From: a virus
DNA: 64,000 nt
IMG/VR virus record: IMGVR_UViG_3300043100_000006
Coordinates: 38,180-102,179 of that record
Strand: one strand, 5' to 3'
Positions 4,699-57,626 of this stretch are shown piece after piece. The position numbers were made by a program, and so were the translations under genes. The notes beneath the pieces were generated by a model. It did not search any database, was not told the DNA's origin, and worked only from the letters and a program-made list of their open reading frames with translations. Within the stretch, counting starts at the first letter, position 1; each line of letters starts with the position of its first letter.

Positions 4699-5169
4699 AT
4701 GAGTAGGGCACGGCAAGCGAAGCAAGTAAAGAACACGGTCGTAACGGCGAAGTGCAAACTGAGCCGCGAAGAGTGCAAGGACGCAAACTGCCCGGTGCAC
4801 GGCGAGCCGAACGACGAAGCGCCAGGTCCGGCGCCAGCAACGAAGGGCGCGGAGAAACTGGAAGCGGCGGAGGAAGAGGGCCGCAGGATCGCGGCGACTG
4901 GCCACGCGATTCCGATTACCGCAGTTGAGGCGGACGAATCCCTCCACCCGGTGGACTTGCCGGGTCATGTGCTCACGATGTTGCGCGAGGCGCACGACAC
5001 GATCAAACACATTCAACATCAGAACGATTTCACGCGTGACCTTTTGAGGCGGATGGAAAATGTACTGGAGCCGCCTCCGGAGTTGATGACGATCGAAGAG
5101 GCACGGCGGCGTTTGGGCGTAGGTGATGTGATTCGATGCAGCGTAAAGCCGGACCAGTTAGCAGGATAA
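4699..5169 (+). CDS. Hypothetical protein
   Basis: AGGAGG SD; Cys/His motif shared with scaffold. Confidence 0.7.
   Translation: MSRARQAKQVKNTVVTAKCKLSREECKDANCPVHGEPNDEAPGPAPATKGAEKLEAAEEEGRRIAATGHAIPITAVEADESLHPVDLPGHVLTMLREAHDTIKHIQHQNDFTRDLLRRMENVLEPPPELMTIEEARRRLGVGDVIRCSVKPDQLAG
4943..4955. repeat. Dispersed palindrome copy 1 (intragenic)
   Basis: GAATCCC-TCCACCCGGTGGA. Confidence 0.9.
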
Positions 5170-5224
5170 GCAAGGCACGCGCACGAAAATTCAAGTGGCG
5201 CGATGCGCCAGACAGAGGAATTGT

Positions 5225-5833
5225 ATGGGAGCACCCAAAGTTCTAGCGGCGGTTGGGAGCACGCCGGTAGCAGTGACGGCAGGCGCAAGCGGATGGCAGG
5301 TTAGCATCGCGCCAGCACCAGGGCAGAGCGGAGCGTATCAGGTTTACGATCAAAACCAGAATCTACTGGCAACGATCCAGGGGAACGCGAGCCCATACCA
5401 GTGGACGCTTTCCCAGACCGGAGACCCATATTTCTCTGGGCAGATCGTCGGCTACGTGTCGGTGCCATCGGGCACGATGAACATGCTAGTGACGGACACT
5501 GGAACGCAAGCGACCGCCGTACCGCAGAGCGGCGGAGCATTTGGAGCCGCAGGAGCGATCACGCAAAAGAGTGGGCGCGCATTCCTAACCGGTGCAACGG
5601 CCACGGCTTACACTTTGGCTGCGCCGACGCCTGGAGCAGATGACTTCAAGTTGCTTGAGATTACTGACGCGGTGGGTGCCGCTCACACAATCACAACACC
5701 AGTGAACGCTCTGAATGGCACGCAAAGTATCGCGACGTTTGGCGGCACGCGAGGAACTGTGTTGGCATTGCGAGCCTACCAAGGCGTGTGGTACGCAAGC
5801 CCGAGTACCCCGGTTACGCTTAGCGGAACATAA
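5225..5833 (+). CDS. Putative virion structural/decoration protein
   Basis: G/T/A-rich beta protein in head module; GAGGA SD. Confidence 0.55.
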   Translation: MGAPKVLAAVGSTPVAVTAGASGWQVSIAPAPGQSGAYQVYDQNQNLLATIQGNASPYQWTLSQTGDPYFSGQIVGYVSVPSGTMNMLVTDTGTQATAVPQSGGAFGAAGAITQKSGRAFLTGATATAYTLAAPTPGADDFKLLEITDAVGAAHTITTPVNALNGTQSIATFGGTRGTVLALRAYQGVWYASPSTPVTLSGT

Positions 5834-5848
5834 CAAGAAAGGCACGGC

Positions 5849-6235
5849 ATGGCAACGGATCAATTATCCTCCGCGAATGTTTTGCGGGCACAGCTCGATG
5901 CTGCGAACGAATTGCTCCGAAGGTTGACGGCAGTCCTAGCCGCGGTGCTGGTGGATCATCATCGCGGCAGACTGCTGATAACGAGCGAGACGGTAGATGC
6001 GATGTACGGCGACCCGGCGCAAGAGAACGGGTTTATGGTGGATGTGCAAACCGTGCAGCCACTTGGCAAGCACAGGTTGCAGGTAATGCAACCGAATGGC
6101 TCAACGTATGTACCAGCACCAGTAGTGATTGAAGGCGAGACACTGGAAGCCTCGGTCTGCGAGGATCCAAATCATAAGCGCGGCAACGGCTTGCGTTGCG
6201 AGGAGTGTGGGAAACTTCTGGAGAAAAAGGCGTAA
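5849..6235 (+). CDS. Hypothetical protein with C-terminal Zn-ribbon
   Basis: C..H...CxxC at C-terminus. Confidence 0.6.
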   Translation: MATDQLSSANVLRAQLDAANELLRRLTAVLAAVLVDHHRGRLLITSETVDAMYGDPAQENGFMVDVQTVQPLGKHRLQVMQPNGSTYVPAPVVIEGETLEASVCEDPNHKRGNGLRCEECGKLLEKKA

Positions 6236-6441
6236 TGACTCAGGACGAGGTTGACGACTTCGTGATCCCGTCAATATCGTTTACGTCGCGCCCTTCTCAT
6301 CTCGGGAACGATGGTAGCTGGGACCCTGCCATGTCGTTACGCAAACCAAGGGAGGCCACGCGGGAGCAGGTTGACAAGGCGGTAAGTCACTTTATAGACC
6401 TGTTGCACGCTGGCATCGTGCCTATGCCCTACAAGCCATAG
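6235..6441 (+). CDS. Hypothetical protein
   Basis: TAATG overlap with upstream gene. Confidence 0.5.
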   Translation: MTQDEVDDFVIPSISFTSRPSHLGNDGSWDPAMSLRKPREATREQVDKAVSHFIDLLHAGIVPMPYKP

Positions 6442-6489
6442 GTGTATGGGGTGCCAATGGCACGCTGTTGCCAGGAGAGGATTTCTGAC

Positions 6490-10037: not shown

Positions 10038-10075
10038 CGCTTACACGGTATAGGTTGCAGATTCGCGGCAAGACA

Positions 10076-10507: not shown

Positions 10508-10534
10508 AAGGCCGTCCCAAAAAGGACGGCTTTT
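10508..10534 (+). terminator. Rho-independent terminator
   Basis: GCCGTCC/GGACGGC stem followed by TTTT. Confidence 0.75.
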
Positions 10535-10541
10535 CTATTTC

Positions 10542-10554
10542 TCCACCGGGTGGA
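10542..10554. repeat. Dispersed palindrome copy 2
   Basis: TCCACCGGGTGGA-GGGACT. Confidence 0.9.
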
Positions 10555-10569: not shown

Positions 10570-11415
10570 ATGCTGACCGACATCGCCACGGTAATGCGCG
10601 CGCTGCATCTCGTGACGACCAACAGCGTGCCGGTACTGTCGCCGCTAATTCCTGATCAGAGCCAAGCGTTTCTGGATGAGACCGGGCGCACGACCTTTGA
10701 TCTTGCAAGCTATGTCGAGACGCGGGACGGACTCGGCAACGATACGATGCAGTTGCAGTATTTCCCGGTGCAGTCGGTCGCATCGTTGGTCAAGAATGGC
10801 GTGACGATTCCGCTGTCAACCGCATGGAACATGTGGGGCTACCAGTGGGACGCGCTCGGCAAGATCACGCTGATCTGCGATTCGTTTAACTGCGGGAATA
10901 TCACGTTCAACCGCAAGAACGTTGTTATTACCTACACCGCTGGCTATCCCACGATCACGGTATCGAACGAACTACAAACCATCGTAGCAACGAATCCGCA
11001 AGGGCCAGGGGGGACGGTAGCGACATGGCCTCCGCCGTACACGATTTACGTTCTGCAACCGAACTGGCTGGCGGATGGCGGCGTAAGTTATTTCGGGGGC
11101 GCGGCGTTGACGCCAGTGACAGGACCGCCGAGCGTGGGACAGTATTACGTTTTGGGAAGTGGCGGTTACCTGTTTGCTGCGGCTGATGTGGGCAAGCAGG
11201 TGACGTTGAACTATACCGCATCTGGCTATCCATCAGACTTGGTTGGTGCCGTGACGCGGATGATCGCTCTGCGCTACTATCAGCAGGGGCACGAGGACAA
11301 GAAGCAAGACAAGCTCGGCGAGGGAACAACGACATATTCTAAAGAAGCGTACCCAACAGATGTTGTTAGGATCATCAAGAAATTTAAGAAGCATTTCTTC
11401 CTTCCCGGATTCTAA
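10570..11415 (+). CDS. Head-tail adaptor (gp6-like) with inserted beta module
   Basis: NVVITYTAGY and YTASGYPSDL motifs; position after capsid. Confidence 0.75.
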   Translation: MLTDIATVMRALHLVTTNSVPVLSPLIPDQSQAFLDETGRTTFDLASYVETRDGLGNDTMQLQYFPVQSVASLVKNGVTIPLSTAWNMWGYQWDALGKITLICDSFNCGNITFNRKNVVITYTAGYPTITVSNELQTIVATNPQGPGGTVATWPPPYTIYVLQPNWLADGGVSYFGGAALTPVTGPPSVGQYYVLGSGGYLFAAADVGKQVTLNYTASGYPSDLVGAVTRMIALRYYQQGHEDKKQDKLGEGTTTYSKEAYPTDVVRIIKKFKKHFFLPGF

Positions 11416-12682: not shown

Positions 12683-15673
12683 ATGAAGATCATGGGAGGG
12701 CGCATCGTCGCACTGGTGGGCATTCTCTCGCTCATGCTCTGTAGTCTTGTACTTGCGCAGGATATTCAACCAACCACGCAAGGGCCAAACAAAGAGACGG
12801 CAGCCTCGGCGGTAATTTCAATTTCGGGAACGCCGGTCTTCTTCGCGGATAGGGGCGGCACGGTTTCTCAGGATTTTGAAATTGTCGTGAACGGATCTCC
12901 GTCCGCGCTGACAGTCAACGTTTACGGGTGCGGACTCTTTGTTTGTACTGCGCTTCCGCTCGGGACTTCGACAGGAACGGGAAGCCAGCACATCCCGGTG
13001 AGCGGCCCCTACGCCCGGTACGAGGTTGTGCCGACTTTTAGCGGCGGAACTTCGCCGACCGTACAGATTAATCGCTACGCAACGACGGCACGAAGCGGCG
13101 GCACGACGCTCACGGGTACGGCGCCAATCGTAGTCGCGGGAGGGGCAGTGTCATGCCCCACCTGCGGCACTGGTACGGGTAACGTAATCGGCGCCACTAC
13201 GCCAACAGCGGGCGATGCGGCGTCATTTGCCGATACCACTGGCAAGTTGCTAGCAGATGCCGGTGGCCCAGTCCCAACGACCATCGCTCCGGTAGCGACT
13301 CAGTTCTTAAGCGGGTATACCAAGAGCACTGGGGCATTTACGCAACGGGCTCTTGTGAGCGGCGATGTTCCAAACAATGGCGCGAACACAACCGGCAGTG
13401 CTGGAAGTTTTACAGGTAACTTGGTCGGCGACGTGACGGGAGCGCAGGGCGCGACGGTTGTTGGGAAAATCAACGGTGTGCCTTTATGTTCTGGCGTCGT
13501 TCCATCTACGACGCAAGTATTAACCTACACAACAGCGAGCAGCCCGAATCCATGTCTTACGTATGGATCTGTTAGCCCGCTTACGACAACTGGCGACATA
13601 TATATCTACAATAGCGGTAATGCTCGGCTACCATTTGGGGCAAATGGCCAATTCATGTTTGGTGCGAGCGGACTGCCGGCATGGGATGTGAATCTAACTG
13701 ACGTTTCTAACCTACTTTCATATACCGGGGCGAGCGGAATCTCCACCAGTGGGCCGATCGCTGGCGGAACTGGAATAAGTAGCAGTGGATCGGGGGCTGG
13801 ACGATTCAGTGCGGGTGCTGGTGCTACGCCGTTTCCAATTAGCGGCAATGCTTATGAATTAATCGGCCCCGCGCAAACGGGGACGGAGTATCAAGAGATG
13901 GTACCGAATGCTGCAGCGACTGGGTTTCTCTACGATACCTCAATCACTCCAGCGACGGCCGGTACGATCACTTTTAGCGGGACTGGGATTGCTACGATTC
14001 CACTCTCGACGGGCGGCACATATCCAGCAGGGATGTATGCTGGGAGCGGCACCGGGCCTCCTTGTCAAATCTCAGGTAATGGCACGAATGCCACCTGCAC
14101 TACGACGATGAATAGCGGCGGGACGGCTGTCGCAAGCTTTAACGTCGGACTCCCTGGCAGTGGCTACACTTTAGCTACCGCATCCGTGCCCAACCAAAAC
14201 TTTCGCTCTTATCTTGCGACAGCAGGTATTCCTCAAGGCGGTACGGGCCAAGCAACGGCCAATGCGGCATTTAACGCCCTGTCCCCAATGACAACGTTGG
14301 GTGACATTGAGTATGAAAACTCTACTCCAGCAGCCGCTAGATTAGCGGGGAACACGAGTGCGACCAAGAACTTCTTAACACAGACGGGCAATGGAACGAC
14401 ATCATCAGCTCCATTATGGGGGCCACTTGCATCTGGCGACATTCCGAATAATGCGGCGAACACTACAGGCACAGCTAGCAATGCAATCGCTGTCAATACG
14501 AACGCGTTTCCCGCTGCCGGTACCTTCGTTTCGGGTGGTATGCCCTGCTACACGAGCACGACCGTAGAGGCTTCTTCCCTATTGTTTAATACGGCGCAGC
14601 CTATCATCGGGAGCGGCGCTGGCACATGCCCAGTAAGCGCTTCAGGAATTAAGTTTGGAAACAATTTAATTCAAAGCACGGCCAACGCCAGCAATATGAC
14701 CTACTCTTCTGGCAACGGAAACGTCAATGCTAACGTTGCCTTGGGTACGACTACCCTCCAAGGGCCAGATATCAATGGGACTGGCGGAGCAGCGTCTGTC
14801 GGTGGGCAAGCTTTAGTCCGCGGCGGAAACAACGCGGCCACCAACGCATCAAGCACGGCTGGAAACGTCGAAGTAGTGGCCGGGACTAGCGTGAGTGCTA
14901 CGATCGGCCATCAGGGTCTTCATCAATTTGGGGGTGCCTATACAAAAGGCACGACCTATACTCAATGGAATCTTCAGTGCTCACAATCTACGGCGGAACA
15001 AACACAGGACTGCACGGCGAGCCCGACCAATGTGATTGGAGTTGGTGAGAGCGTGAGTGCGACTGGCGTTACGGTGTTGGATGATGGAGATATCCCGATC
15101 AATGCCAGCGCAGCGGTGACGGCCGGGCATTCGGTATGCGCAGGCACGACGGCTGGACAGGTTACGGATAGCGGCGGCACAGGCCCATGCACATTTGGAT
15201 CAACGATTGGGCACGTAACGCATACCAGTGGGACTTACACACTGCCGGATGGCGTGAGCGTTACAGCGAGCACTTCGCTTCCGATTGTCCATTGGGAATA
15301 TCGTGCGCCGACCTTCCCGCAAATGGTGGGTTCGGTTAGTTGCACACAAGCCAACTGCGCATCCTCCGCGACCACGCTATTCACTACAGGTGGAAGCACG
15401 GCACTATATAACATTTTCGCGGCAATTGACTGCACCGGTACGACCTCGACAGCTACGGCACAAATCAGCGTCAAATATACTGATCCCAGCGGGACGGTAC
15501 AAACTCTCGCACCCACGGCTGCGGCCTGCACCGCTTTAGGAAGTTCCTCGGTAGCTATGATAAACCAGAGTGTAGAAGCGCAAAATGCGACAGCGATTCA
15601 ATATCTAACGACGGGAGTAAATTCACCGAACTATCAAGCCCGCGTCTCCATTATCCAGTTAACCACGAACTAA
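12683..15673 (+). CDS. Large Gly/Thr/Cys-rich fibre-like protein with Sec signal peptide
   Basis: MKIMGGRIVALVGILSLMLCSLVLA|Q; fibre-like repeats SPLTTTGDI/SPMTTLGDI and SGDVPNNGANTTG/SGDIPNNAANTTG. Confidence 0.7.
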   Translation: MKIMGGRIVALVGILSLMLCSLVLAQDIQPTTQGPNKETAASAVISISGTPVFFADRGGTVSQDFEIVVNGSPSALTVNVYGCGLFVCTALPLGTSTGTGSQHIPVSGPYARYEVVPTFSGGTSPTVQINRYATTARSGGTTLTGTAPIVVAGGAVSCPTCGTGTGNVIGATTPTAGDAASFADTTGKLLADAGGPVPTTIAPVATQFLSGYTKSTGAFTQRALVSGDVPNNGANTTGSAGSFTGNLVGDVTGAQGATVVGKINGVPLCSGVVPSTTQVLTYTTASSPNPCLTYGSVSPLTTTGDIYIYNSGNARLPFGANGQFMFGASGLPAWDVNLTDVSNLLSYTGASGISTSGPIAGGTGISSSGSGAGRFSAGAGATPFPISGNAYELIGPAQTGTEYQEMVPNAAATGFLYDTSITPATAGTITFSGTGIATIPLSTGGTYPAGMYAGSGTGPPCQISGNGTNATCTTTMNSGGTAVASFNVGLPGSGYTLATASVPNQNFRSYLATAGIPQGGTGQATANAAFNALSPMTTLGDIEYENSTPAAARLAGNTSATKNFLTQTGNGTTSSAPLWGPLASGDIPNNAANTTGTASNAIAVNTNAFPAAGTFVSGGMPCYTSTTVEASSLLFNTAQPIIGSGAGTCPVSASGIKFGNNLIQSTANASNMTYSSGNGNVNANVALGTTTLQGPDINGTGGAASVGGQALVRGGNNAATNASSTAGNVEVVAGTSVSATIGHQGLHQFGGAYTKGTTYTQWNLQCSQSTAEQTQDCTASPTNVIGVGESVSATGVTVLDDGDIPINASAAVTAGHSVCAGTTAGQVTDSGGTGPCTFGSTIGHVTHTSGTYTLPDGVSVTASTSLPIVHWEYRAPTFPQMVGSVSCTQANCASSATTLFTTGGSTALYNIFAAIDCTGTTSTATAQISVKYTDPSGTVQTLAPTAAACTALGSSSVAMINQSVEAQNATAIQYLTTGVNSPNYQARVSIIQLTTN

Positions 15674-21270: not shown

Positions 21271-21283
21271 TCCACCCGGTGGA
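21271..21283. repeat. Dispersed palindrome copy 3
   Basis: AAATCCC-TCCACCCGGTGGA-AGGATTC. Confidence 0.9.
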
Positions 21284-24062
21284 AGGATTCGAGGACAATC
21301 CCATCGACGACGTTGTTTTCAAACTGACAACCGTATACGACGGCGCACAACTAGCCGAAGGTATGTCTGGGTCTACGGCTGTGATCGAGGGCGATGTCGC
21401 CGCATGGAAAGAAGCATTTGCTTCCGCATTTACCCAGATAGAATCCAGCAACGCCGCTGTCGTTGAGTCCATTCGCACTCTCACTGCCGCGATTGACACC
21501 ATCCCAGTTGCATCTACTAAGGCCGCTGCCGAATCAGGGAGCGCCTTCTCCGCCCTTACTGAGCACATCGTTAGTTCTGCTGAGGTAGCAAAGCTAGAAG
21601 CGGCCGGCATCGGCGGAGCTTTCTCTGGACTCGGCGCAATCCTCGGCGGGGGACTTGCCGTAGGGTTCCTCGCACATCTTCTCGATGAAACCAACAAAGA
21701 GGTAATCGCGCTGGGGAACCTTTCCGTGCAGAGTGGAGTGTCAATCAGTTCACTCGCAGGACTACAACTGACGGCGAGAGAACTCGGCATTGATTTCCAG
21801 GTTGTCCAGCAATCCATGACCAGGTTGGAGGCGGCGCAGGCTCGCGCCGTTGAAGGCAGCCGGGCGCAAGTGGAGGCCTTCGCGCGTATTGGGTTGACGG
21901 TCAATGAGATCAAGAATCTTTCACCGGAAGAACTGTTCAATACCGTATCCGGAGCCATACAGCACACGGGCAGTTCCGCGGATATAGCAGCATCCGCGAT
22001 TACGCTTCTCGGTCGCGGTGGACGCGCCTTAATTCCAGTATTCAAGGAATATGGCGGGACGCTCGACGAGGTAATGAAGAAACTCGGGGAGGAGAGCGGC
22101 GTCACTGAGCAAGCTTATCAAGAAGCGCTGAAATACCAGAAGGTCATGGCGGACCTTGGCGACGAGATTCGTAAACTGGCCATCGAGTCCATACCCTACC
22201 TAACGTTCGGGATACAGCACCTGTCGGCGTTCTTGGATGAAGCGAGAGCGGCAGTCGGCGAACTTGTGATCAGATCCGTCGAGTGGGTAGCGGTTAATCG
22301 TGACGTTGCGGATGCGCTGACTGGAACTAAAAGTTTTAGCGAAGCCTATGCGGACATCAAGGTTCAGGCGGCTTTAGCAACTCAGTCCATCGCGCAACTG
22401 AACACCGAGACGGCAAAGTTGGTGAATCAGGACCTCGGCAAAACTCAAGAGAAACCAGGCGACCTAATGAACTGGGTCAACAGCCTCGACAGTGGCAAGA
22501 ATGTACCATCGGGCGCAGGAGCACCGGCAGCGAAAGATAACCGCCTCGAAGACTGGAAACTACAACTTCAGCAGATGCAGGATGCGAGCAACCAGTCGCA
22601 TCTGGAAATGCTGGCGCAGGAAGTGGCGTTCTGGGATAACATCCTGCAAACCGTTAAGTTGAAGACTGCGGAAGAAGTCGAGATCCGGCACACGATTGCG
22701 ACGGCAAATAAAGAGTACACGAAACAGATCGAAGGCGATGTCATTCGGAGTTATCAGGAAGCGGCGCAGGCGGCGGGCGAGGGCACGGAAAAGCAAATCG
22801 CCATTCTGCAAACTCTCGAAGCCTATGTAGAGAAGACCTCGGGCAGCCAGTTCTCAGCAGAAGCCATCCACGCGCAAGAGGAGATCACGAAGGCCAAGAA
22901 TGCGGCGGCGGAAAACGAGATCAAAAACCTCTCGAAGATCGCGTCGATGAATGAGGAGATCGCCGCACAGGAAGCGAAGCGCGCGACTCTCCAAGTCCAA
23001 GAGGCGGTGAAGGACCAGCAAGCGCAGATCATCGAGCAGAAGGACCAGCAAATCAAGCCCACTGGAACCATCGGGGCCGTTGTCGACGCAAGCCAACTCC
23101 AGGCGCGGTCCTCTCAACAGATTGCCATCGCACAGAGTGCCGCGTCTCAGGAAGAAGCAATCAGTGAACAACTCAGAGACAAACAAATCGCAGACGCGGA
23201 AGTTGTGGAGAACGCGAACACCCAAGCCTTCGCGGCTGGTACCATCAGCCTCCAGCAATATCAGGAGGAGCACGACCGCATCGAAGGCGAGATTACAAAG
23301 TTCATCCAGCAGCAGGCAACAGAGCGCGAGGAGATCAACAAGAAACTGAACGATCAGATGGACAAGGCGGACGAGCAGGAAGCGAAGAAGATGATGCAGA
23401 TTCAGGAGCAACTAACCAACTCCTTCGCGGCTGCCTTCGACAAGATGATTTTTCAGTCCAAGAATGCGGGTCAGGCCCTCCGCGATTTGTGGCAGGGGAT
23501 TGTGAAAGCCATCATCGAGCAATTTGTGAAGATGGCAACGCAATTCATCATCCAGCAGACAGTGATGAACGCAATCGCTAAGGCTTTGGCTGCACAGAAG
23601 TTGGCAACGGCAATGGCTGCGGATGAAGCGGAGCACGTCACGACGGTAGCGGCGAACGAACTCCAAGTACAGAGTTATGCGGGAGTGGCGGCTGCGGCTG
23701 CGTTTGCTGCGAATGCCGAAGACCCTGTCGCGGCTGCTGTGGCAGCTACGGCGGCGTTCGCTGCTACAGAAGCTTTCGGATCGGCTGCCGCAGCGGAGCG
23801 CGGGTACGATGTGCCGGGAAAGAGCGGCGTGTATCCAACGTTCCTCCATCCGCGCGAAATGGTTTTGCCGTCCGACATCGCCGGCGGAGTGCGGAGCATG
23901 GTAAACAACTCGACTTCGAACACAAGTGCGGCAGGCCAGACATTCAACGTGCGCCAGGTGTTTGCGCCGACGATCAATACGCCATTCAATCCGGAGGAGC
24001 ACGCGGATAAATTGTTCTCGATGTTCCGCGGCAAGTTGCGGAAGTTGGGGGTGAGCGCATAA
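21279..24062 (+). CDS. Tape measure protein
   Basis: 927 aa helical Ala/Gln/Glu-rich; LLGRGG..LIP; C-terminal AERGYDVP..LHPREMVLP; start uncertain. Confidence 0.9.
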   Translation: MEGFEDNPIDDVVFKLTTVYDGAQLAEGMSGSTAVIEGDVAAWKEAFASAFTQIESSNAAVVESIRTLTAAIDTIPVASTKAAAESGSAFSALTEHIVSSAEVAKLEAAGIGGAFSGLGAILGGGLAVGFLAHLLDETNKEVIALGNLSVQSGVSISSLAGLQLTARELGIDFQVVQQSMTRLEAAQARAVEGSRAQVEAFARIGLTVNEIKNLSPEELFNTVSGAIQHTGSSADIAASAITLLGRGGRALIPVFKEYGGTLDEVMKKLGEESGVTEQAYQEALKYQKVMADLGDEIRKLAIESIPYLTFGIQHLSAFLDEARAAVGELVIRSVEWVAVNRDVADALTGTKSFSEAYADIKVQAALATQSIAQLNTETAKLVNQDLGKTQEKPGDLMNWVNSLDSGKNVPSGAGAPAAKDNRLEDWKLQLQQMQDASNQSHLEMLAQEVAFWDNILQTVKLKTAEEVEIRHTIATANKEYTKQIEGDVIRSYQEAAQAAGEGTEKQIAILQTLEAYVEKTSGSQFSAEAIHAQEEITKAKNAAAENEIKNLSKIASMNEEIAAQEAKRATLQVQEAVKDQQAQIIEQKDQQIKPTGTIGAVVDASQLQARSSQQIAIAQSAASQEEAISEQLRDKQIADAEVVENANTQAFAAGTISLQQYQEEHDRIEGEITKFIQQQATEREEINKKLNDQMDKADEQEAKKMMQIQEQLTNSFAAAFDKMIFQSKNAGQALRDLWQGIVKAIIEQFVKMATQFIIQQTVMNAIAKALAAQKLATAMAADEAEHVTTVAANELQVQSYAGVAAAAAFAANAEDPVAAAVAATAAFAATEAFGSAAAAERGYDVPGKSGVYPTFLHPREMVLPSDIAGGVRSMVNNSTSNTSAAGQTFNVRQVFAPTINTPFNPEEHADKLFSMFRGKLRKLGVSA

Positions 24063-32416: not shown

Positions 32417-33709
32417 ATGGCACTCCAGTTCCTGATGTCGGGTGGAAACTTTATCGCAACCGTTGGCGTGAACGGAGCGGCGGGAGTTTGGGCCTCCGGT
32501 TCTGGTGGGTGGGTGATCGTCCAAGCTACGCCGGGAGGAAGTATTGTCGGTGACAGCTATTGGCACCAATCGGCGTCGCCTAGCAGTCCAGTTTTAATTA
32601 CTCCTGCTCTCGGCGCCGGTGGCTGGTCGGGACTCATCGCGGGGTGCAGGATGAACGTAGCAGCCTTGTCGAACAACCAGGCTTTGATTCGATTCCTCGA
32701 TGCTGCAAATAACGCGCAATGCGATGTTCGGATGAATGCCGCTGGACAATTATTTTTCACCAGAAATGGAATCGTCATCAGTTCAAACAGTTCATTTGCA
32801 CTGACAGCAGTCAGTGATTTTTATATAGAGTTCAAGGCGATTTTCTCTACTACGTCTGGAGGAACTTGCGAAGTTCGGATCAATGGCATAGCAGTCCTAA
32901 CCGTCACCGGAGTAACTAATGCGGTGAACGTAAACGGCGGAACGGTTGCTGTGTTCTGTTCGGTTAATCCCAGTGGCTGCTACCTTCGTGATTTCTATGT
33001 ACTCGATACAACTTCTGGATCGAACGTAGGCTATCTCGGCGATCTTGCCGTCGTGGAGTTATTCGGCGATGGTCCGGGAGTCAATAGTGCTTGGACTCCG
33101 AACGTCGGACCATTCTCGATTACCTCAGTCGCGAATGCTTCTGGAGGAAACACTGTCTACACTGGCGCGATCACGGGCGGAGCCAGCAATACGTATCTCG
33201 GATATAACTTTCTTCCAAGCGGCTTCGCGCACTCCCAAAACAATACTGGAGGATCGAATCCAGCCTTCTTCGAGTGTGTCGCTTCGACGGCGACGACGAT
33301 CACACTTAACAATCCTTCAGGTGTGAGCGATACGACAGGAAGCATTGCCTTTCAGTGTATCGTACAAGCTGGCATCAATCAGACAGGCACAAGACCGAAC
33401 GCCGACGTGACATACATCTCAGATGCCACCACCGGCGACATCTCCGACTTTGTACACACGCCGCTCGTGTTAACTGGAATCGTTTTTGGAGTAGTTCATC
33501 AGTCCTACTTACGCAAAGACGATCTCGGCACGCGGCAAGTTGCGCAAGTCTGTCTATCGGGAGGCTCCACTGAGCAGGGCGCAACTATATCGGTCGGTAA
33601 TTCTTATCAGTATTATCAAGATGTTTTAGAGGTTGATCCCAATACTTCAACTCAATTCAGCATTTCCGGCTTAAACGCGGCTTCGTTCGGCATAAAGGAG
33701 ATCACGTAG
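32417..33709 (+). CDS. Minor tail/fibre protein
   Basis: Lectin-like beta protein after tail tip; shares a module with the tail tip. Confidence 0.65.
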   Translation: MALQFLMSGGNFIATVGVNGAAGVWASGSGGWVIVQATPGGSIVGDSYWHQSASPSSPVLITPALGAGGWSGLIAGCRMNVAALSNNQALIRFLDAANNAQCDVRMNAAGQLFFTRNGIVISSNSSFALTAVSDFYIEFKAIFSTTSGGTCEVRINGIAVLTVTGVTNAVNVNGGTVAVFCSVNPSGCYLRDFYVLDTTSGSNVGYLGDLAVVELFGDGPGVNSAWTPNVGPFSITSVANASGGNTVYTGAITGGASNTYLGYNFLPSGFAHSQNNTGGSNPAFFECVASTATTITLNNPSGVSDTTGSIAFQCIVQAGINQTGTRPNADVTYISDATTGDISDFVHTPLVLTGIVFGVVHQSYLRKDDLGTRQVAQVCLSGGSTEQGATISVGNSYQYYQDVLEVDPNTSTQFSISGLNAASFGIKEIT

Positions 33710-33710: not shown

Positions 33711-33953
33711 ATGGCAGCACGTAACGACCAAGACCTACCGATTGCAGCAACCCTGCCATCCTCATCGAAGGCGCGCGATGCGCAGGACATGGCCCTGGCT
33801 GGAACCCTGCCATCGTCGTCAAAGGCGCGCGATGCGCAGGAAGGTATTATTGTTGCCGCATTGCCATCCATTGCGCGCTCACGGAACGGCCAGCAAGTGA
33901 TCTTGGTTGCGCTCGGCAAGTCTCGCTTCCCTGTAACTTTTGTGGTTACATAA
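33711..33953 (+). CDS. Small protein of 18-aa tandem repeats
   Basis: R(N/D)xQ.....TLPSSSKA repeated about four times (54-bp unit). Confidence 0.7.
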   Translation: MAARNDQDLPIAATLPSSSKARDAQDMALAGTLPSSSKARDAQEGIIVAALPSIARSRNGQQVILVALGKSRFPVTFVVT

Positions 33954-33957: not shown

Positions 33958-33970
33958 TCCACCCGGCGGA
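33958..33970. repeat. Dispersed palindrome copy 4 (one mismatch)
   Basis: TCCACCCGGCGGA-CAGATTT. Confidence 0.8.
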
Positions 33971-34602: not shown

Positions 34603-34614
34603 GCCCCGAATTCC

Positions 34615-34627
34615 TCCACCGGGTGGA
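34615..34627. repeat. Dispersed palindrome copy 5
   Basis: CCGAATTCC-TCCACCGGGTGGA-AGGATTCGG. Confidence 0.9.
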
Positions 34628-34794
34628 AGGATTCGGACGGGCAAGAAAAAGCATTGCATCCAAAGGGCGATGGGATAGAATGGGGATGCCTCCCCAGTCC
34701 TGCCGCACGGCACGGTTCGGCACGGTTCCGTCTTTCGTAAATTTTACTGTTGCTGTGTTGAAAATCTCAAGTTATAGTAAAAACTTGGAGAACC

Positions 34795-38662: not shown

Positions 38663-38675
38663 TCCACCGGGTGGA
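38663..38675. repeat. Dispersed palindrome copy 6
   Basis: TCCACCGGGTGGA-AGGATTT. Confidence 0.9.
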
Positions 38676-38704: not shown

Positions 38705-38734
38705 TTGACACGGATTCACTAGTACAGTTAAATT
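38705..38734 (+). promoter_or_regulatory. Leaderless promoter with GATTCACTAGTA operator
   Basis: TTGACA-18-TAAATT-7-ATG(38742); operator 38713-38724. Confidence 0.65.
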
Positions 38735-38741
38735 CAGAATC

Positions 38742-38948
38742 ATGCCCGTACTGGAAATGCTCGAAGAGATTGACGGAGTCGGTGTCGCAGACATCGGTTG
38801 GTGCCCTGCTTCGGAAGAAGGAGAGCACGAGCGGCTTGTGCGTGATGCGCGGGCAGAGCGGGAGCGGATGGGATTCGACGTTGCGGAGTCTTCGGTGGTT
38901 TGCGGCCGGTGCCACATGCTGATTCCGCTGGAGTGCCGGGTCGGATAG
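38742..38948 (+). CDS. Hypothetical protein
   Basis: Leaderless start. Confidence 0.55.
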   Translation: MPVLEMLEEIDGVGVADIGWCPASEEGEHERLVRDARAERERMGFDVAESSVVCGRCHMLIPLECRVG

Positions 38949-39003
38949 AGGTCGAAATGCACGGTCAAGAAACCGTTTCAAAAGCAAGCCAGATGGCTCT
39001 CTG

Positions 39004-39381
39004 GTGAAGATGGTTGTAACGAACAGCCCACTCTCGCGCAACGCGGAACGCAGTCGTCTTGCTGGAAGCCTACCCATTGACTTCCGGTGTCCTGAGTGCA
39101 GCGCCGATCTAGGCACCCTCTGCTATCATGCGGATCGGCAGCATCGCGTCAAAGCTTTCCATGCTCGGCGGAAACTCATGGCTAACGCTGCAGCGCGGGC
39201 GATGGGGCTTGTCTATCCTCGGCGATTGAGGACCAAGCCGAGTCTTGGTACTGGTCAATTGCAGATGGGGAAAATGCTAGTTACCGACTTCGCGCAGCGA
39301 GCAATAGAAGAGCATGATCCACAAAAGGCGGTTCGCATTGTGAAACTGTGGAGGGGAGACAGGAAAGTTGATAAACGATGA
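39004..39381 (+). CDS. Zinc-finger protein
   Basis: CPEC.A..G..C...H..R. Confidence 0.6.
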   Translation: MKMVVTNSPLSRNAERSRLAGSLPIDFRCPECSADLGTLCYHADRQHRVKAFHARRKLMANAAARAMGLVYPRRLRTKPSLGTGQLQMGKMLVTDFAQRAIEEHDPQKAVRIVKLWRGDRKVDKR

Positions 39382-40564: not shown

Positions 40565-40581
40565 AGCGAATGCCGAATCTT

Positions 40582-40594
40582 TCCACCGGGTGGA
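40582..40594. repeat. Dispersed palindrome copy 7
   Basis: CCGAATCTT-TCCACCGGGTGGA-GAGATTCGG. Confidence 0.9.
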
Positions 40595-40849
40595 GAGATT
40601 CGGTGTTATATTCATCCGGCCAGCGGTGTGGCAACGCGAGACTCCAGCCGCCGACTTTTTCTCCGTCATGCACGGTCTGACCAAACTCGAATACGCCGCG
40701 ATTCTGCTCACGGCAGTATGGGTCGGCTATCGCGCCTATCCTGGCTACGCGCTGGCCGACATGGTTGGCAGTTTGTTCGTTATGTTGTTTGCCTACCTTG
40801 CGATGACGGTAATCGTGATCTGGATCAAGAGCGGCGGCGACACGCATTT

Positions 40850-42927: not shown

Positions 42928-43254
42928 ATGAGAACGCCACTACCGAGCGGCCCGAATCGCTTCACGGCGAAGCGCGGCGGGAAGCAGGCCACAAACGGCA
43001 AGTCGATTCCTGTTACGTGCTATCCACGCAAGCGAACAAAAGCGCTGCTGGTGGAGATTGCGCAGCAAGTTGAGCAGGGTGTGAGTGCATTCCTGATTAT
43101 CTCTGGACTGGAGAAGGTTGCACGCATTAAGGCGCAGGGCAACAAAGTTGAGGTATTGACGGAGAGCGAGTTAGAGTCCGCGGTGAGATCGTTGATTCCG
43201 GAAGAAGAGTACGCCGAGCTTTTGCGGAAGCGCGGCGGCAAGGGAAAGAAATGA
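42928..43254 (+). CDS. Putative ribbon-helix-helix regulator
   Basis: Basic N-terminus, IPVTCY strand, K.LL...A......VS.F helices. Confidence 0.5.
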   Translation: MRTPLPSGPNRFTAKRGGKQATNGKSIPVTCYPRKRTKALLVEIAQQVEQGVSAFLIISGLEKVARIKAQGNKVEVLTESELESAVRSLIPEEEYAELLRKRGGKGKK

Positions 43255-43844: not shown

Positions 43845-43857
43845 TCCACCGGGTGGA
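43845..43857. repeat. Dispersed palindrome copy 8
   Basis: G-TCCACCGGGTGGA-CTGATC. Confidence 0.9.
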
Positions 43858-44010: not shown

Positions 44011-44039
44011 TTGACTGATTCACTGGTATTCTGTATTCT
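44011..44039 (+). promoter_or_regulatory. Leaderless promoter with operator variant
   Basis: TTGACT-17-TATTCT-6-ATG; GATTCACTGGTA 44017-44028. Confidence 0.7.
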
Positions 44040-48616: not shown

Positions 48617-49372
48617 GTGAATGCGTCCACCGGGTGGAAGGATTCGATGCCAACGCATGAGTGCTCGATTGACGAACGCGACCAGGACCCAGACGCGCCA
48701 GTTACGATGAAGGCGGCAGAAGCCTATGCTGACGCCGTGGAGTCGCTAGCGCGTGCACTGATCGATGCTCGCGAAAACATCCCGCTCGGATTCACGGAGA
48801 TTGCCACGAAGCACGAGTGGATGCACAGACTGTCATTCCTGGCATTTGCGTGCGAGCATCCCAGTCGGAGAAAGAGGACACCAATGGACGTGGAGGACAT
48901 GATTGGAAAATGGTTACCGCTGATTCGGCAACTGGCAATGGCGCATGACATTGACGAGCGAGATGCGGCGAGTTCGCAACTCGATGAATTCTTGACGCCG
49001 ATCATCGCTGCGCCAGTCGCGCAGATTCGGGAGTTCTACCGCGAGCTCGTGAAGCGGATGAAGGCCGATCCCACAGTCCCTTGGTGCGTCTGGAAGATGT
49101 TTGAATTCTGGGGGACGAATGTCTTGGACAAGATCGAGAAAGAGGAAGTGATCGGACTCAAGACGGAGATAGCAAAACGCATCGCAGAAAACTCGTTTGC
49201 TCAGATACCGCGGTCTGACTGGATCGATTCGATGGTGGGCGCTTTGCAGTGGCGTGAACCGGAGAAACTGGAGAAGATCGAGAAGGCAATCGAGGCCGGC
49301 GAAAAGCCGCGCGTGCGAGGGAAACAGAGTTGCTTGTTTATGCAGGTCGCTGGGTTGGAGGTCATGTTGTGA
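48617..49372 (+). CDS. Hypothetical protein (start uncertain)
   Basis: Long ORF in operon. Confidence 0.55.
   Translation: MNASTGWKDSMPTHECSIDERDQDPDAPVTMKAAEAYADAVESLARALIDARENIPLGFTEIATKHEWMHRLSFLAFACEHPSRRKRTPMDVEDMIGKWLPLIRQLAMAHDIDERDAASSQLDEFLTPIIAAPVAQIREFYRELVKRMKADPTVPWCVWKMFEFWGTNVLDKIEKEEVIGLKTEIAKRIAENSFAQIPRSDWIDSMVGALQWREPEKLEKIEKAIEAGEKPRVRGKQSCLFMQVAGLEVML
48626..48638. repeat. Dispersed palindrome copy 9
   Basis: GAATGCG-TCCACCGGGTGGA-AGGATTC. Confidence 0.9.
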
Positions 49373-53919: not shown

Positions 53920-53933
53920 TAGACTTCCATCCG

Positions 53934-53946
53934 TCCACCGGGTGGA
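53934..53946. repeat. Dispersed palindrome copy 10
   Basis: TCCACCGGGTGGA-GAGATTC. Confidence 0.9.
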
Positions 53947-53966
53947 GAGATTCAGAGAGGCTGAAA

Positions 53967-54329
53967 ATGCGAAACGTCGCGCTGTTAGTTTGTATGATCG
54001 TCGCACCACACTCACAGGGCGTTACGATATGCCATCTCCAACCCTCTAAACCTTCATGTACATTCAATCTGCCATCTCGCACCGTGAGCGTGGCTGTGGA
54101 GGAGATCGCAGAGAACAAAAGTGACTGTTGCGTGGTTATCATGGGATGCATTGGTGCCAGATGCCACGAACTTGATCGAAACGGTCGTTTCCCAGCGATT
54201 CAATCCGTGTCAACGCCGATATTCGGCGGATATGATCGCATTGTGCTGCGATTTACTGGCGGCGGTTCCATTGTGGCGGCCATCGTTATCACAAGACTTG
54301 GCAAGGAGGACGAGATTGATGGAGAGTGA
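53967..54329 (+). CDS. Hypothetical protein, possible signal peptide
   Basis: GAGG SD; MRNVALLVCMIVA. Confidence 0.45.
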   Translation: MRNVALLVCMIVAPHSQGVTICHLQPSKPSCTFNLPSRTVSVAVEEIAENKSDCCVVIMGCIGARCHELDRNGRFPAIQSVSTPIFGGYDRIVLRFTGGGSIVAAIVITRLGKEDEIDGE

Positions 54330-54618
54330 TCTGGGAGTCCGACGCTCTACCGGAGAGCCGCTTATCCGTGTCCGGAAACGGTTCTTTGGTCCAAAGGTCG
54401 GGCAGTATACGTTCGACGGCAGCACTTGGACATTCAGCCGTAGAGATCAAGGCCGAGTCATGGTCACGTTTGTAGCGAATGGCATAGTTTTCAACAGCAT
54501 CGAAGTAGCTCTGCAAAAGACGTGGCTACGAAACCGCAATATTTTCGAGTACAGTAAACTGCTGGAGAAAGAGAGGTACGTCATCAATGTTCCGCACGGA
54601 AGCAGAAGAGACGCATGA
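54319..54618 (+). CDS. Hypothetical protein
   Basis: AGGAGG upstream. Confidence 0.5.
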   Translation: MESDLGVRRSTGEPLIRVRKRFFGPKVGQYTFDGSTWTFSRRDQGRVMVTFVANGIVFNSIEVALQKTWLRNRNIFEYSKLLEKERYVINVPHGSRRDA

Positions 54619-54886
54619 ACTCTGCCGCGAAGTAATCGCGGACCTGATGCAGCGGCCAGCGGAGCGGTTTTACGCGGGCGAACAGATAGCGCTGAATGCG
54701 GCATCGCTCGGACTTTATCGACAGGACCAGGACTTGCTCGACTGGCTGTTCGATCTGCGCCGGATGACGGCGCGAGCACTAGAGGGGAATATTGACATAT
54801 ACGCCATCGCAGGCAAGCCAGAGCGAATCGAACACCGATTGACGCGGCGTGAGATCATGGTGCCGTACATGCCGAGGATTCGATGA
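54587..54886 (+). CDS. Hypothetical protein
   Basis: Packed ORF. Confidence 0.5.
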   Translation: MFRTEAEETHELCREVIADLMQRPAERFYAGEQIALNAASLGLYRQDQDLLDWLFDLRRMTARALEGNIDIYAIAGKPERIEHRLTRREIMVPYMPRIR

Positions 54887-55278
54887 AGGCGCGGGACATC
54901 ATAGCGAACTGGCCACGCGGTCGCAGTTCAAGCCGACCGATTCGAATTCCCGCATGGTTCCGCTTCGCATGGTACAAGTCAAGGATGGAGGCCGCAGGGC
55001 ATCCAATCTTTGGGCCGACCGATGCAGCATTTGAGGAGTTCACGCGGACGAACATGATTCTGTTTTTTGAAGCGGAGGCTGAGGCGAAGTACCGCGCAGA
55101 GCAGGACCGCATGACGGATGCCTATAGACTGGAGCAGTTTGGAGAAAGGGAATTCGTTCGCATCTTCGGACGCGCGGACATCACCCGCGAGGAGATCGAG
55201 AAACTGTTTCCAGGCAAATGCGAATTTCCATTCGACAAACTCCCGCGCAAGATTGCAACAGCCGAGGCCCAACAATGA
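54883..55278 (+). CDS. Hypothetical protein
   Basis: ATGA overlap. Confidence 0.5.
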   Translation: MKARDIIANWPRGRSSSRPIRIPAWFRFAWYKSRMEAAGHPIFGPTDAAFEEFTRTNMILFFEAEAEAKYRAEQDRMTDAYRLEQFGEREFVRIFGRADITREEIEKLFPGKCEFPFDKLPRKIATAEAQQ

Positions 55279-56180
55279 GCAAAAAGAAATTCCAGGAAAT
55301 CATCCCGCCCGACGACTTAATCAACCACGCAGAGAACCTTGACCGCGAAGCTCGCCGACTCTGGACCGAGATGGACATGCACATCACGGCGGCGGAAATC
55401 ATCAGCATCCCATTCGGGAAAGTCTGCCAAGAAATGAAAGACCAGGCATTGCACAAGATGGTGCGTAAGGCCCACTCGCGGAAGGGCTACCCGTCTTTCC
55501 CGGAGTGGGTAGAGTCGGTGACGAACGGAAAACTGTCGAGCAGTTCACTTTACATGGCGATGGGGCTCCATCGGTTGACAGAAGGGCCGAACGCGATTCC
55601 TGCCGAAGAAATTGTGCAGATGCCGAAAGAGAATGCCTATCGACTTTCGACGCAACTCACGCCGGAGCAGCGGACGCCGGAGATGATTGAGAAGGCGAAG
55701 AAAACCACGAAAGAGGAATTCCCGAAGCGCATCCAGGAGAAATTGAACGAAGGATTGCCGGCGGATAAGCAGGTTGTCATCCGCGTGGAGTTCTTTCGGC
55801 AGTGGGCGCCGGACGTGGTCAACAAGCTGGAAGCGACGATTGAGCGGTTCACGCATTTGCCGATCGTGCGTGATCACAACCGGGAACTGACTTTGCAGGA
55901 GAAGGCGGTGTTGGCGATTTGCTTTGCCGCGGAGAGTGATTGCGATTTATTGTTGAAGCAAGCGGAGGCGGAACACAGTGCGGAGATCGAACTACCTGAA
56001 GCGAAAGAAGCCGTTGCCGAGACAAACGAAGCCGTTGAAGCGGACGGCGATCAAACGGAAAGCGACATGGAAGACCTTGAAGCGGCAAACGGGGATACGT
56101 TCGCGGAAGGAGACATCGTCGAGCAAGAGGAGTTCCACGAAACGCGGCGGGTGGTCCCGCTCGAAGAAGTCGAGAGTTAA
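55275..56180 (+). CDS. Hypothetical protein with acidic tail
   Basis: GY.SF.EW motif; ATGA overlap. Confidence 0.6.
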   Translation: MSKKKFQEIIPPDDLINHAENLDREARRLWTEMDMHITAAEIISIPFGKVCQEMKDQALHKMVRKAHSRKGYPSFPEWVESVTNGKLSSSSLYMAMGLHRLTEGPNAIPAEEIVQMPKENAYRLSTQLTPEQRTPEMIEKAKKTTKEEFPKRIQEKLNEGLPADKQVVIRVEFFRQWAPDVVNKLEATIERFTHLPIVRDHNRELTLQEKAVLAICFAAESDCDLLLKQAEAEHSAEIELPEAKEAVAETNEAVEADGDQTESDMEDLEAANGDTFAEGDIVEQEEFHETRRVVPLEEVES

Positions 56181-56981
56181 GCCGGACATCGAGATAATCG
56201 ACGATCCGTATTCGCCTTCGGCAGACCGCAAGCGGGTGCTCTACCACTCGAAAGAAGCGATAGCATCGTTGCACTTGGAGTTGTGGACCTTGGCAGGCGG
56301 GATGTGCGAGGCGCATGTAGACATCGCAAGGCTGGCGGCAATGGGCAAGATGGTAAGCGAACCGCACCCGGCTCATCGGATTCGACTGGAAGATATGCAA
56401 CCGCATCATCGGCACGGGCGGGGCGCTGGCAAAAGAGAGGACCGACCTTTTATCACGCTGGACGATGGGCGACTGCTACGGATGGCGCTGTGTGTGTGTC
56501 AGCGCGGGCACGACCTGATTCACGAGTTCGCATTGCTGAGGGATTTTCTGACAGAGGTGAGATGACCAAGATTCTGTGGGCAATCGAGACGCATCGTGCC
56601 GGCGTGTGGACCCTGCTCCCTAACACCATCATGGTTGATCGTCGTAATGCCGAATTCGAGATGGAGTGCCTGCGAAAAGAAGAAACCAAGAAAGCCAATC
56701 CAGAAAGATACCGACTAGTTCGTTATCAGCGAATCGAAGGTTAGGAGTCTAAATGAAAACGTACAGCAATGCCGAATTAATGATGGGCCGAACACCGCAG
56801 AGCAGGGGGCGCGACATGAGCACCTACCGTCAGTCACGCCGCCGCACTCATCTCGCGGAAGCGAGACAAGAAATCACAAAACGCTTTGCAGGCACCGGGC
56901 GGGGCGGGAACTTGCAATGGCCGGAAGAGTTATGTCCGCGACGCCGGCGGCGTTCCATTATCCGCGCAAAGGCGAAACGCC

Positions 56982-57626
56982 ATGTGGACTAAGGAAGCAC
57001 CGAAGGAGCCGGGGTTCTACTGGTTTAGATATCCGCAGATGACCCCGATTTACAGGGACGACAACCCAACCATCGTGCGCGTGCTGAAACCGCTGTATGA
57101 TGGCGGTCCAGTGCAGTGCGCGTTTCCGGGGAACGAAGAATGTCCACATTCGATAAACATTCCCGGCGATCCAGAGTGGTGGAGCGAGCGCATTATCTCG
57201 CCATCGGAGCACGTGTTATTCGATGGATTCTTCGCACCGAAAGACTTCCCTGATCAAATGGCGCGCATCTTTGAGACGCGATATACGTGTCTGGTAAAGC
57301 AAAAGTCGGTGCAGTCTGTTCACGAAGGCGACGTTGTAGTCCTGCCGGAATATGGGCGGCTTTGGGTGCGCAAGATTGGTCCACCGAATACGGACGGATC
57401 CGTTCAACTCGAATGTTCAAACCGCCCACCAGAATGGTTAGCATTTGCGCCAGTCGGGAGCGAGCCAATCTCTCCACCGGGTGGACAAATGATCTGCTCG
57501 TCGGCAGACATGCCTTCGGAGACTGGCACACTGGTGATGCCTGGGCGCGCCGAATCGCAGCGAGCAGCAGGACTGCGGACCATCGCGAAGCCGGGAGAGC
57601 CGGGGTACAAGGAGCCAGCGCAATGA
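56982..57626 (+). CDS. Hypothetical protein
   Basis: WT...P.EPG.YW motif common in phage small genes. Confidence 0.55.
   Translation: MWTKEAPKEPGFYWFRYPQMTPIYRDDNPTIVRVLKPLYDGGPVQCAFPGNEECPHSINIPGDPEWWSERIISPSEHVLFDGFFAPKDFPDQMARIFETRYTCLVKQKSVQSVHEGDVVVLPEYGRLWVRKIGPPNTDGSVQLECSNRPPEWLAFAPVGSEPISPPGGQMICSSADMPSETGTLVMPGRAESQRAAGLRTIAKPGEPGYKEPAQ
57473..57485. repeat. Dispersed palindrome copy 11 (intragenic)
   Basis: CAATCTC-TCCACCGGGTGGA. Confidence 0.9.

Follow-up and report, generated by a model that had tools for sequence, protein, structure and literature searches.

The stretch of viral DNA analyzed here, the 64,000-nucleotide window spanning bases 38180-102179 of a 102,179-bp IMG/VR virus record (IMGVR_UViG_3300043100_000006; the whole genome is designated g0), is punctuated by a short palindrome, TCCACCSGGTGGA. 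The record carries a 123-bp terminal repeat and is siphovirus-like in content, encoding a portal, tape measure, helicase, O-like initiator, exonucleases, two DNA methylases, and a ParB, with almost all of its genes on one strand; a megablast search of phage GenBank with 10 kb of the window as query returned no match. A pattern search of the window recovered ten exact copies of the palindrome and one with a single mismatch (at 33958), which are the eleven that an earlier reading of the DNA, made from the sequence only, had listed. Dinucleotide shuffles of the window contain a mean of 0.09 copies and a maximum of 1. The whole of g0 holds 17 exact and 2 one-mismatch copies at a spacing of approximately 5 kb, a density of ~170 copies/Mb, and no other repeated palindrome of the 6-N-6 form was found in g0 or in the relative described below.

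An IMG/VR pattern scan identified fragments and a relative of 102,896 bp (G001, hereafter g1), in which 10 copies are exact and 3 have one mismatch. The two genomes are ~75% identical and align in collinear blocks at 65-85% DNA identity, 59 of their ~150 genes being reciprocal best hits. Eleven sites can be paired as orthologs; identity across these pairs is 98% in the arms, falling to 59% in the flanks and to 26% (ungapped) in the outer spacer. The 11 orthologous sites have been held under strong purifying selection while their spacers diverged, which argues that the phage needs them. The sites are also spaced more evenly than random (coefficient of variation 0.61 versus 0.93, p = 0.018).

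Over the 32 sites of g0 and g1 the conserved unit measures ~29 bp, AATC-NN-TCCACC-S-GGTGGA-NN-GATT. Its 12 arm positions are essentially invariant, and the center is G in 23 sites and C in 9, never A or T. Beyond the arms, positions ±7 and 8 are variable, flank half-blocks AATC and GATT occupy ±9 to 12 (left: -12 A, -11 A, -10 T, -9 C; right: +9 G, +10 A, +11 T, +12 T), and a G is favored at +14; no sequence information is detectable past ±15 and no promoter consensus accompanies the palindrome. The flank consensus proposed by the sequence-only reading is real, but its symmetry is not, since over 10 positions the right flank holds 8.3 bits of information versus 5.6 for the left, an asymmetry that arises in part where the left flank coincides with stop codons and the ends of coding sequences (TAATCC is frequent). 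Both of the near-perfect 31-bp palindromes described by that reading exist, with two non-complementary positions in 34606-34636 and one in 40573-40603. The core includes CCSGG, a common target of C5 methylases. A C5 cytosine DNA methylase open reading frame (ORF) outside the window, at genome positions 12995-13873, matches only the first half of its Pfam model, and a motif copy (13817) sits 56 nt before its stop codon.

The flanks and the center both bear on whether the element acts as DNA or RNA. Among 53 distinct sites from all sources, covariation between left and right flanks (positions ±7 to 16) nowhere rose above that seen with shuffled right-hand letters; the flank blocks are thus conserved as sequence and not as pairing partners. 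The center differs (G to C or the reverse) in 4 of the 11 orthologous pairs, as would be seen if the same site were read from either strand of duplex DNA. Together these observations are better explained by a two-fold symmetric protein bound to duplex DNA than by an RNA structure, and on balance we think it probable that the sites dock a symmetric DNA-binding protein.

The palindrome is largely confined to this phage group. Four contigs whose capsids are 61-62% identical have no such palindrome in their structural regions, indicating that the motif belongs to a narrow clade with scattered single copies elsewhere. A scan of 185,579 species, each represented by one genome, returned at least 120 stretches; among the matches listed all are singletons except three loci with two copies, and both flanks are present in only 2 of the 120. 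An Acidobacteriota metagenome-assembled genome (MAG) has two prophage-like regions that each contain a single true copy with both flanks, and further true copies lie in integrase-bearing soil metagenome contigs, including Ga0210394_10000328, Ga0210394_10000394, and Ga0302326_10001083; in the stretches examined, such contigs have hardly any proteins in common with g0. Two related soil contigs (L274:95-1643 and L158:4842-6366) have the motif ~270 nt before a tyrosine integrase gene, and it is at the motif that their shared DNA homology stops. Two observations make Acidobacteriota the likely host phylum: ParB homologs that are 33-40% identical carry names from Acidobacteria MAGs, and forest soil and peat are the sources of the motif-bearing metagenome contigs. 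Across 401 Acidobacteriota genomes, a tally that includes one unpublished genome (G167, with one match, on which the conclusion does not depend), counts run from 0 to 8, typically 0-2 per 2-9 Mb, and are near those of a reversed-pattern control; at least one core copy occurs in 145 of them. The genomes with 5-8 copies have 70-75% GC and their matches lack flanks; the G+C-rich, CCSGG-containing core is matched by chance in high-GC genomes. The element is real, selected, and phage-specific.

Positions of the copies and of associated features in the window are given in Table 1, with gene placements from our own crude gene calls.

Table 1. Palindrome copies and associated features, numbered from the first base of the window
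Feature	Position	Strand	Context
Motif copy, center C	4943..4955		inside conserved structural ORF 4699-5169, in a variable protein linker
Canonical terminator, hairpin plus T-run	10508..10541	+	adjoins copy 10542 on its upstream side; read in the sequence
Motif copy	10542..10554		start of gene 10570-11415 is 15 nt downstream; canonical intrinsic terminator directly upstream
Motif copy, center C	21271..21283		overlaps start of tape-measure gene (21279-24062); orthologous copy in g1 at 82086
One-mismatch copy (GGCGGA)	33958..33970		4 nt past stop of gene 33711-33953; between convergent genes
Motif copy with 31-bp extended palindrome	34606..34636 (core 34615-34627)		divergent intergenic spacer
Motif copy	38663..38675		5 nt past stop; 29 nt upstream of conserved sigma-70-like promoter; ortholog in g1 at 95527
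Sigma-70-like promoter, TTGACA-18-TAAATT	38705..38734	+	conserved spacer word GATTCACT; downstream of copy 38663
Motif copy with 31-bp palindrome	40573..40603 (core 40582-40594)		17 nt past stop, 31 nt before start
Small ORF, alternative candidate binder	42928..43254	+	called ribbon-helix-helix by the sequence-only reading; 53% conserved in g1
Motif copy, poor flanks	43845..43857		5 nt past stop; RNA pairing limited to the core, -8 kcal/mol
Motif copy	48626..48638		11 nt past stop of Gp3-like gene; next start 8 nt on
Motif copy	53934..53946		14 nt past stop, 20 nt before start
Motif copy	57473..57485		inside uncertain ORF; parB 1 kb downstream; g0-specific
Orphan ParB-family protein, 561 aa	58486..60171	+	leading candidate binder

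The placement reported by the sequence-only reading was reproduced, with six copies 4-17 nt past a stop codon (33958, 38663, 40582, 43845, 48626, and 53934), two at or just before gene starts (10542 and 21271), and two inside ORFs (4943 and 57473). In g0 as a whole, 16 of 19 sites are intergenic. Tight junctions of the form stop-(4-27 nt)-motif-(8-33 nt)-start account for 12 of the 32 sites of g0 and g1; at some others the next gene is 170-580 nt away, and at four sites a sigma-70-like -35 box follows 11-29 nt downstream. The flank consensus, NRGATTSG, has no T run, and without a U tail the copies do not have the form of intrinsic terminators; ordinary U-tailed terminators occur elsewhere in this phage, one of them at 10508-10541. 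The proposal of a DNA-level function distinct from termination stands on that basis. A promoter for a phage RNA polymerase, or an activator site, was rejected because gene starts fall only 8-31 nt after many copies, leaving no room for a -10 element and a leader, and because sequence information ends at ±15; no RNA polymerase gene was recognized among ~70 scanned proteins, many ORFs being unscanned and no search having been aimed at a polymerase or sigma factor. The promoter downstream of copy 38663 is followed by ~550 nt without a called gene (window 38705-39260), and its counterpart in g1 by ~970 nt likewise lacking a called gene (95558-96534), where a non-coding RNA or small unannotated genes are possible. 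A second sigma-70-like promoter of the type bearing GATTCACT lies at window positions 44011-44039.

If the sites dock a protein, the phage's own ParB is the foremost candidate. Its N-terminal domain matches PF02195 (E 1e-24) and, aligned to Spo0J (1vz0), contains the GERRFRA box (the GxxRxxA CTP box) and ENLQRADL, and its helix-turn-helix (HTH) region matches PF17762 HTH_ParB (E 1e-12), with a divergent recognition helix (KEESYVAKRLKL versus KSRPHIANHLRL in Spo0J). The N-terminal 180 residues match Spo0J 1vz0 at E 5e-37 (~37-40% identical) and KorB 8qa8 at E 3e-16, the match to the Pfam KorB domain falling below threshold (E 0.0019). The C-terminal half (residues ~230-370) contains Cys/His clusters that are invariant across 13 homologs (C240, C243, C262, C267, C330, C358, C363, H366, and H367), which suggests zinc-binding modules absent from canonical ParB. 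These 13 full-length homologs, at 49-100% identity, all keep the helix KEExYVAKRLKL and the Cys/His-rich C-terminal part. Contigs of roughly 100 kb encode ParB homologs at 72% (P0006) and at 49-55% identity (P0008, P0010, P0012, and P0013). Plasmid matches include a 'PRTRC system ParB family protein'. Searches of g0 and g1 with tblastn found no ParA (best E 0.09), and neither genome contains a canonical parS; the arrangement therefore differs from a ParABS system, with its ParA partner and its centromere at the par genes.

Five candidate DNA-binding proteins of g0 were compared with g1, namely ParB, the product of the 42928 ORF, a LuxR-type HTH protein, a winged HTH protein, and a cold-shock protein. 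The LuxR-type HTH protein (18297) and the winged HTH protein (44669), both proposed as binders by the sequence-only reading, are absent from g1, which keeps the motif, and hence are unlikely to be the binder. ParB is kept at 75%, the product of the 42928 ORF at 53%, and the cold-shock protein is kept as well, as is a coiled-coil protein outside this set. Among the five, ParB is the only one retained that has a recognized sequence-specific duplex-DNA-binding domain.

A parallel in Burkholderiales elements points in the same direction. Searches of GenBank phages and PLSDB plasmids with tblastn revealed homologous long ParBs, 35-42% identical through residue ~290 including the Cys motif, in Variovorax phage VarioGold (38%), Acidovorax phage Aval (35%), and a 36.9-kb phage-like plasmid of Comamonas (42%). 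A different palindrome, GTGCASANNTSTGCAC, occurs six times in VarioGold (expected 0.03) and five times in Aval (expected 0.09), and the 26-kb portion of the Comamonas plasmid that was examined contains five copies (four exact and one with one mismatch, counted without a shuffle control); each of the three elements has one of its copies within parB. The recognition helix of these ParBs is (K/M)SRxYV(Y/F)xRLK, versus KEESYVAKRLK in the phage described here. The palindrome paired with the VarioGold ParB as its candidate site is GTGCAGACGTCTGCAC. Covariation of palindrome and recognition helix across lineages is thus suggestive, in one further lineage. The three elements (VarioGold OP296522, Aval OP131589, and Comamonas plasmid NZ_CP083453; our entries L315, L316, and L317) are related temperate elements with ParB genes of 770-950 aa, and in VarioGold a terminator-like hairpin bears at its tip the copy that follows the capsid gene.

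Some other apparent pairings were set aside. The motif occurs beside parAB on a soil contig (L189) and in a Chitinophagaceae MAG (L060); these are 2 of 240 stretches, near chance, and the L060 match falls within a gene, in a genome of 38% GC. L189 has two exact canonical parS sites, indicating that its ParB is an ordinary one. Between those two sites (L189:400-560) is a 64-bp tandem repeat, each unit of which carries the same 13-mer, upstream of a chromosomal-type parAB on a contig of 67% GC; this was judged a coincidence. Acidisarcina plasmid pACPOL3, whose ParB is 37% identical, was also discarded as a parallel, its single one-mismatch match being inside a gene.

Several observations weigh against ParB as the binder. 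In g1, parB lies within a 25.7-kb stretch free of the motif, with no site near it, and in g0 the copy nearest parB is 1 kb away and is not conserved. The conserved span of ~29 bp exceeds the usual 16-bp parS. Because VarioGold, Aval, and the Comamonas plasmid are mutually related, they add only one lineage, and two proviruses with ParB homologs at 37-39% show no clear palindrome family. In the Acidobacteriota MAG the ParB-like hits lie on contigs other than those bearing the motif, and no ParB was found in the examined stretches of the integrase-bearing motif contigs; these copies may be passengers of module exchange, or the binder may not be ParB. The better conserved right flank could also reflect a directional role, possibly at the RNA level. 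Weighing these points with those above, we name ParB tentatively, as the likeliest of the candidates but at somewhat less than an even chance. A provirus of 38% GC (G006, IMGVR_UViG_3300025921_000697), in which ParB is 39% identical, carries four copies of AGTAATT-N5-AATTACT (33165, 45674, 55258, and 70301) that are flanked by A and T runs and resemble bidirectional terminators.

The sites might instead dock another protein, whether the product of the 42928-43254 ORF, a small phage protein that has gone unrecognized, or a host factor common to phages of one host group; we regard this as possible but distinctly less favored. A dimer of dimers would be a natural fit to a span of ~29 bp made up of four blocks, and the 42928 ORF is, as noted, among the genes kept in g1. 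Its product, however, has no match in Pfam or PHROGs, so that both its fold and its DNA binding are only guessed. The occurrence of the element in several otherwise unrelated phage and prophage contigs from acid soils, and on the ParB-less contigs of the MAG, would be in line with a host factor, or with a small regulator that can be exchanged. Against the former, sites would be expected in the host, yet the 401 Acidobacteriota genomes stand at about control level; against the latter, no small regulator was seen to be common to the motif-bearing contigs, in which the only widely shared gene (g0_57) looks coiled-coil.

A role in RNA is unlikely. The transcribed palindrome would in this case form an intercistronic hairpin that hides the downstream Shine-Dalgarno sequence, giving translational coupling, or repression through a protein that binds hairpins, or else would serve as a site of processing or stabilization. 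The tight stop-motif-start junctions and the stronger right flank are in keeping with such a role, the right arm and flank (GGTGGA-RGGA) are often the sole Shine-Dalgarno-like purine run (as at 48626, 8 nt from the ATG), the coding-strand center is G in 16 of 19 g0 copies, and the phage encodes a cold-shock-domain RNA chaperone. But the exact sequence is kept where stability is not: predicted hairpin energies range from -8 to -26 kcal/mol, one copy favors another fold, and the extended stem shows no compensatory change. Moreover, the center is G in 7 and C in 6 of the g1 copies and flips between orthologs, there is no U tail, and several copies are 170-580 nt from the next gene or lie upstream of promoters, which would place them at 3' ends and not in 5' leaders. 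RNase III substrates usually comprise about two helical turns; the continuous stem here is at most 15 bp, usually less, with mismatches at ±7-8. The cold-shock-domain protein (genome 32002-32214, L154:12002-12214; PF00313, E 1e-27) is kept in g1 and in a further genome, G002, and could melt RNA or DNA hairpins.

The distribution of the sites relative to gene order raises a further reading, in which the palindrome is primarily a recombination linker or mobile cassette boundary, in the manner of the PeSLs of T4-type phages, or a small selfish palindrome spreading between co-infecting phages, with any protein binding secondary. As an account of the element's main role this is unlikely. The sequence-only reading had predicted that synteny breakpoints would fall on the motif, and to a modest degree they do: breaks occur at 10 of 16 motif junctions versus 46 of 128 others in g0 (p = 0.039) and at 7 of 11 versus 47 of 140 in g1 (p = 0.049). 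Conversely, the motif never stands between two collinear orthologs (0 of 16 versus 28 of 128 junctions in g0, p = 0.025; 0 of 11 versus 28 of 140 in g1, p = 0.096). A block of DNA homology between g0 and g1 terminates at the copy at 40573-40603, and downstream of copy 48626 the gene content of the two genomes differs. The gene at genome positions 33254-33514 directly follows a motif in g0 and its homolog directly follows a different motif in g1, the g0 cassette ending in a decayed copy that keeps both flank blocks. Homology blocks among the integrase-bearing soil contigs and the MAG prophage regions likewise begin or end at the motif, and the same 27-31 bp recur in contigs with almost no protein similarity. 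Set against this, the enrichment is modest (p 0.03-0.1) and comes from one genome pair with crude gene calls, breakpoints would naturally fall at intergenic regulatory sites in any case, the 11 orthologous sites are under strong purifying selection, and the even spacing would be unexpected of a selfish element. No transposase, RAYT, or integrase able to move the sites was found in g0 or g1, nor was any target-site duplication or clean presence/absence polymorphism seen. We therefore treat the link to mosaic junctions as genuine but secondary. The right-flank word ACTTTCGGGA stands at both ends of the one-gene cassette described above (genome 33226-33534, in L154; g1 4037 and 56583). An ISXO2-like (IS1595 family) transposase gene is located close to where the phage genome ends (window 63106-63891, minus strand).

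Two related identities were tried and dropped. An integron attC site belongs to a cassette array beside an intI integrase and is an imperfect palindrome of 57-141 bp; the element described here is 27-31 bp long, has several genes between copies, and is accompanied in g0 and g1 by no integrase matching the two tyrosine integrases of related soil contigs. A tRNA-like or attP reading of the flanks was abandoned because the spacing does not fit that of tRNA T-arm sequences. Finally, that the palindrome is a host-genome repeat, a compositional artifact, or a CRISPR-repeat mimic is very improbable: chance matches of the G+C-rich core in high-GC genomes lend the idea something, but the shuffled windows are nearly empty, the species-genome matches listed are nearly all singletons, the 401 Acidobacteriota genomes contain no array of the motif, and the low copy number across the most likely phylum argues against an interspersed or repetitive extragenic palindromic (REP)-like host unit. 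The sequence-only reading had entertained such a unit and named host density as a means of refuting its own account, a refutation that the candidate host genomes do not bear out.

Returning to the protein-docking reading with ParB as the candidate, we infer the following course of events. The ~29-bp sites would dock a two-fold symmetric protein, made during infection, on double-stranded DNA. By analogy with KorB on plasmid RK2, a partner-less ParB with its CTP box would be loaded at every site, form a closed clamp there, and slide on across neighboring genes, so that it would coat or regulate the whole genome and not serve partition. The recurrence of the same ~29 bp between genes would in addition provide a homology patch for the exchange of gene blocks among related phages, which would explain the link with mosaic junctions. 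Taken to its full extent, this picture has lytic-looking large soil phages, probably of Acidobacteriota, running a plasmid-style, genome-wide control in which an orphan ParB clamp loaded at ~19 evenly placed palindromes coats the chromosome and the sites double as module joints between unrelated phages of the same hosts; so complete a scheme is speculative, and we advance it with reserve. The coating might time expression, compact the chromosome, or protect it from host nucleases. No paper describing an orphan-ParB genome-wide clamp system in tailed phages was found.

For the dispersed exact palindromes of a few phage groups, such as the Cluster O mycobacteriophages, a function has never been found. 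If ParB is the binder, the sliding-clamp silencing model of KorB would be extended from plasmids to tailed phages, and the many orphan ParB genes in phage genomes would gain a role; if the binder is another protein, the sites would still offer a handle on a global regulator of an uncultured phage group. The mosaic-joint link bears on how phage modules come to be exchanged. VarioGold, Aval, and the Comamonas plasmid represent cultured or isolate-derived material with a parallel pairing of a long ParB and a palindrome of its own, and both VarioGold and its host are in culture.

Among known systems, parS and Noc sites are alike in being palindromic, multi-copy loading sites for a CTP-dependent clamp of the ParB fold, the clamp being a prediction in the phage. 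They differ in that the phage has neither a canonical parS nor ParA, its sites are not clustered at parB, and its recognition helix has KEE for KSR and GHALE for GHGRT. The PeSLs of T4-type phages are composite early-promoter and terminator motifs confined to hyperplastic regions (PMC2839356; PMC4122927). As with the present element, these repeated intergenic elements flank variable genes and coincide with boundaries of insertion, deletion, or replacement; the phage palindrome, however, has no promoter consensus or U tail, and copies also occur in the structural module. The stoperators of Cluster A mycobacteriophages are asymmetric sites, oriented with transcription and bound by the prophage repressor (PMC4351075). 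The genome-wide placement of 13-bp sites in short intergenic gaps is shared, whereas the phage site is symmetric, a true palindrome whose center flips between orthologous copies, so that a stoperator in the strict sense, one of the earlier suggestions, no longer fits. No integrase was found in g0 or g1 by tblastn with two tyrosine integrases from the related soil contigs, and no repressor was recognized, no systematic repressor search having been made.

Cluster O mycobacteriophages carry 17-bp dyad repeats, TGTTCGGNNNCCGAACA, with 34 copies in Corndog, for which a dimeric DNA-binding protein has been predicted (PMC4351075). Like the palindrome described here, they combine inverted arms that do not vary with a high copy number in a siphovirus genome, most copies being within or close to intergenic gaps; the central bases have no orientation to transcription, the phages are not obviously temperate, and a protein with a ParB-like domain is encoded. 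The sequence, the host phylum, and the spacer (3 bp in Cluster O versus 1 bp here) differ, and few Cluster O repeats lie at points of insertion, deletion, or rearrangement (PMC4351075), versus the enrichment at synteny breaks seen here. On the ~60-kb IncP-1 plasmid RK2, KorB acts at twelve OB operators, from which its CTP clamp slides (PMC13768133). OB sites and the phage sites are both 13-bp perfect palindromes with a G/C center (TTTAGC-S-GCTAAA and TCCACC-S-GGTGGA), both recur roughly every 5 kb along the entire replicon, with promoters at varying distances, and each replicon codes for a ParB-family protein that combines a CTP box with an HTH. Unlike RK2, the present replicon is a 102-kb tailed phage without ParA/IncC and with no recognized KorA- or TrbA-like lock proteins; its sites span ~29 bp, a long Cys/His-rich part replaces the C-terminal domain of KorB, and binding by the phage protein is putative. 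By this comparison, KorB with its OB operators on RK2 is the closest working model, and among phages the dyad repeat of Cluster O is the closest case described.

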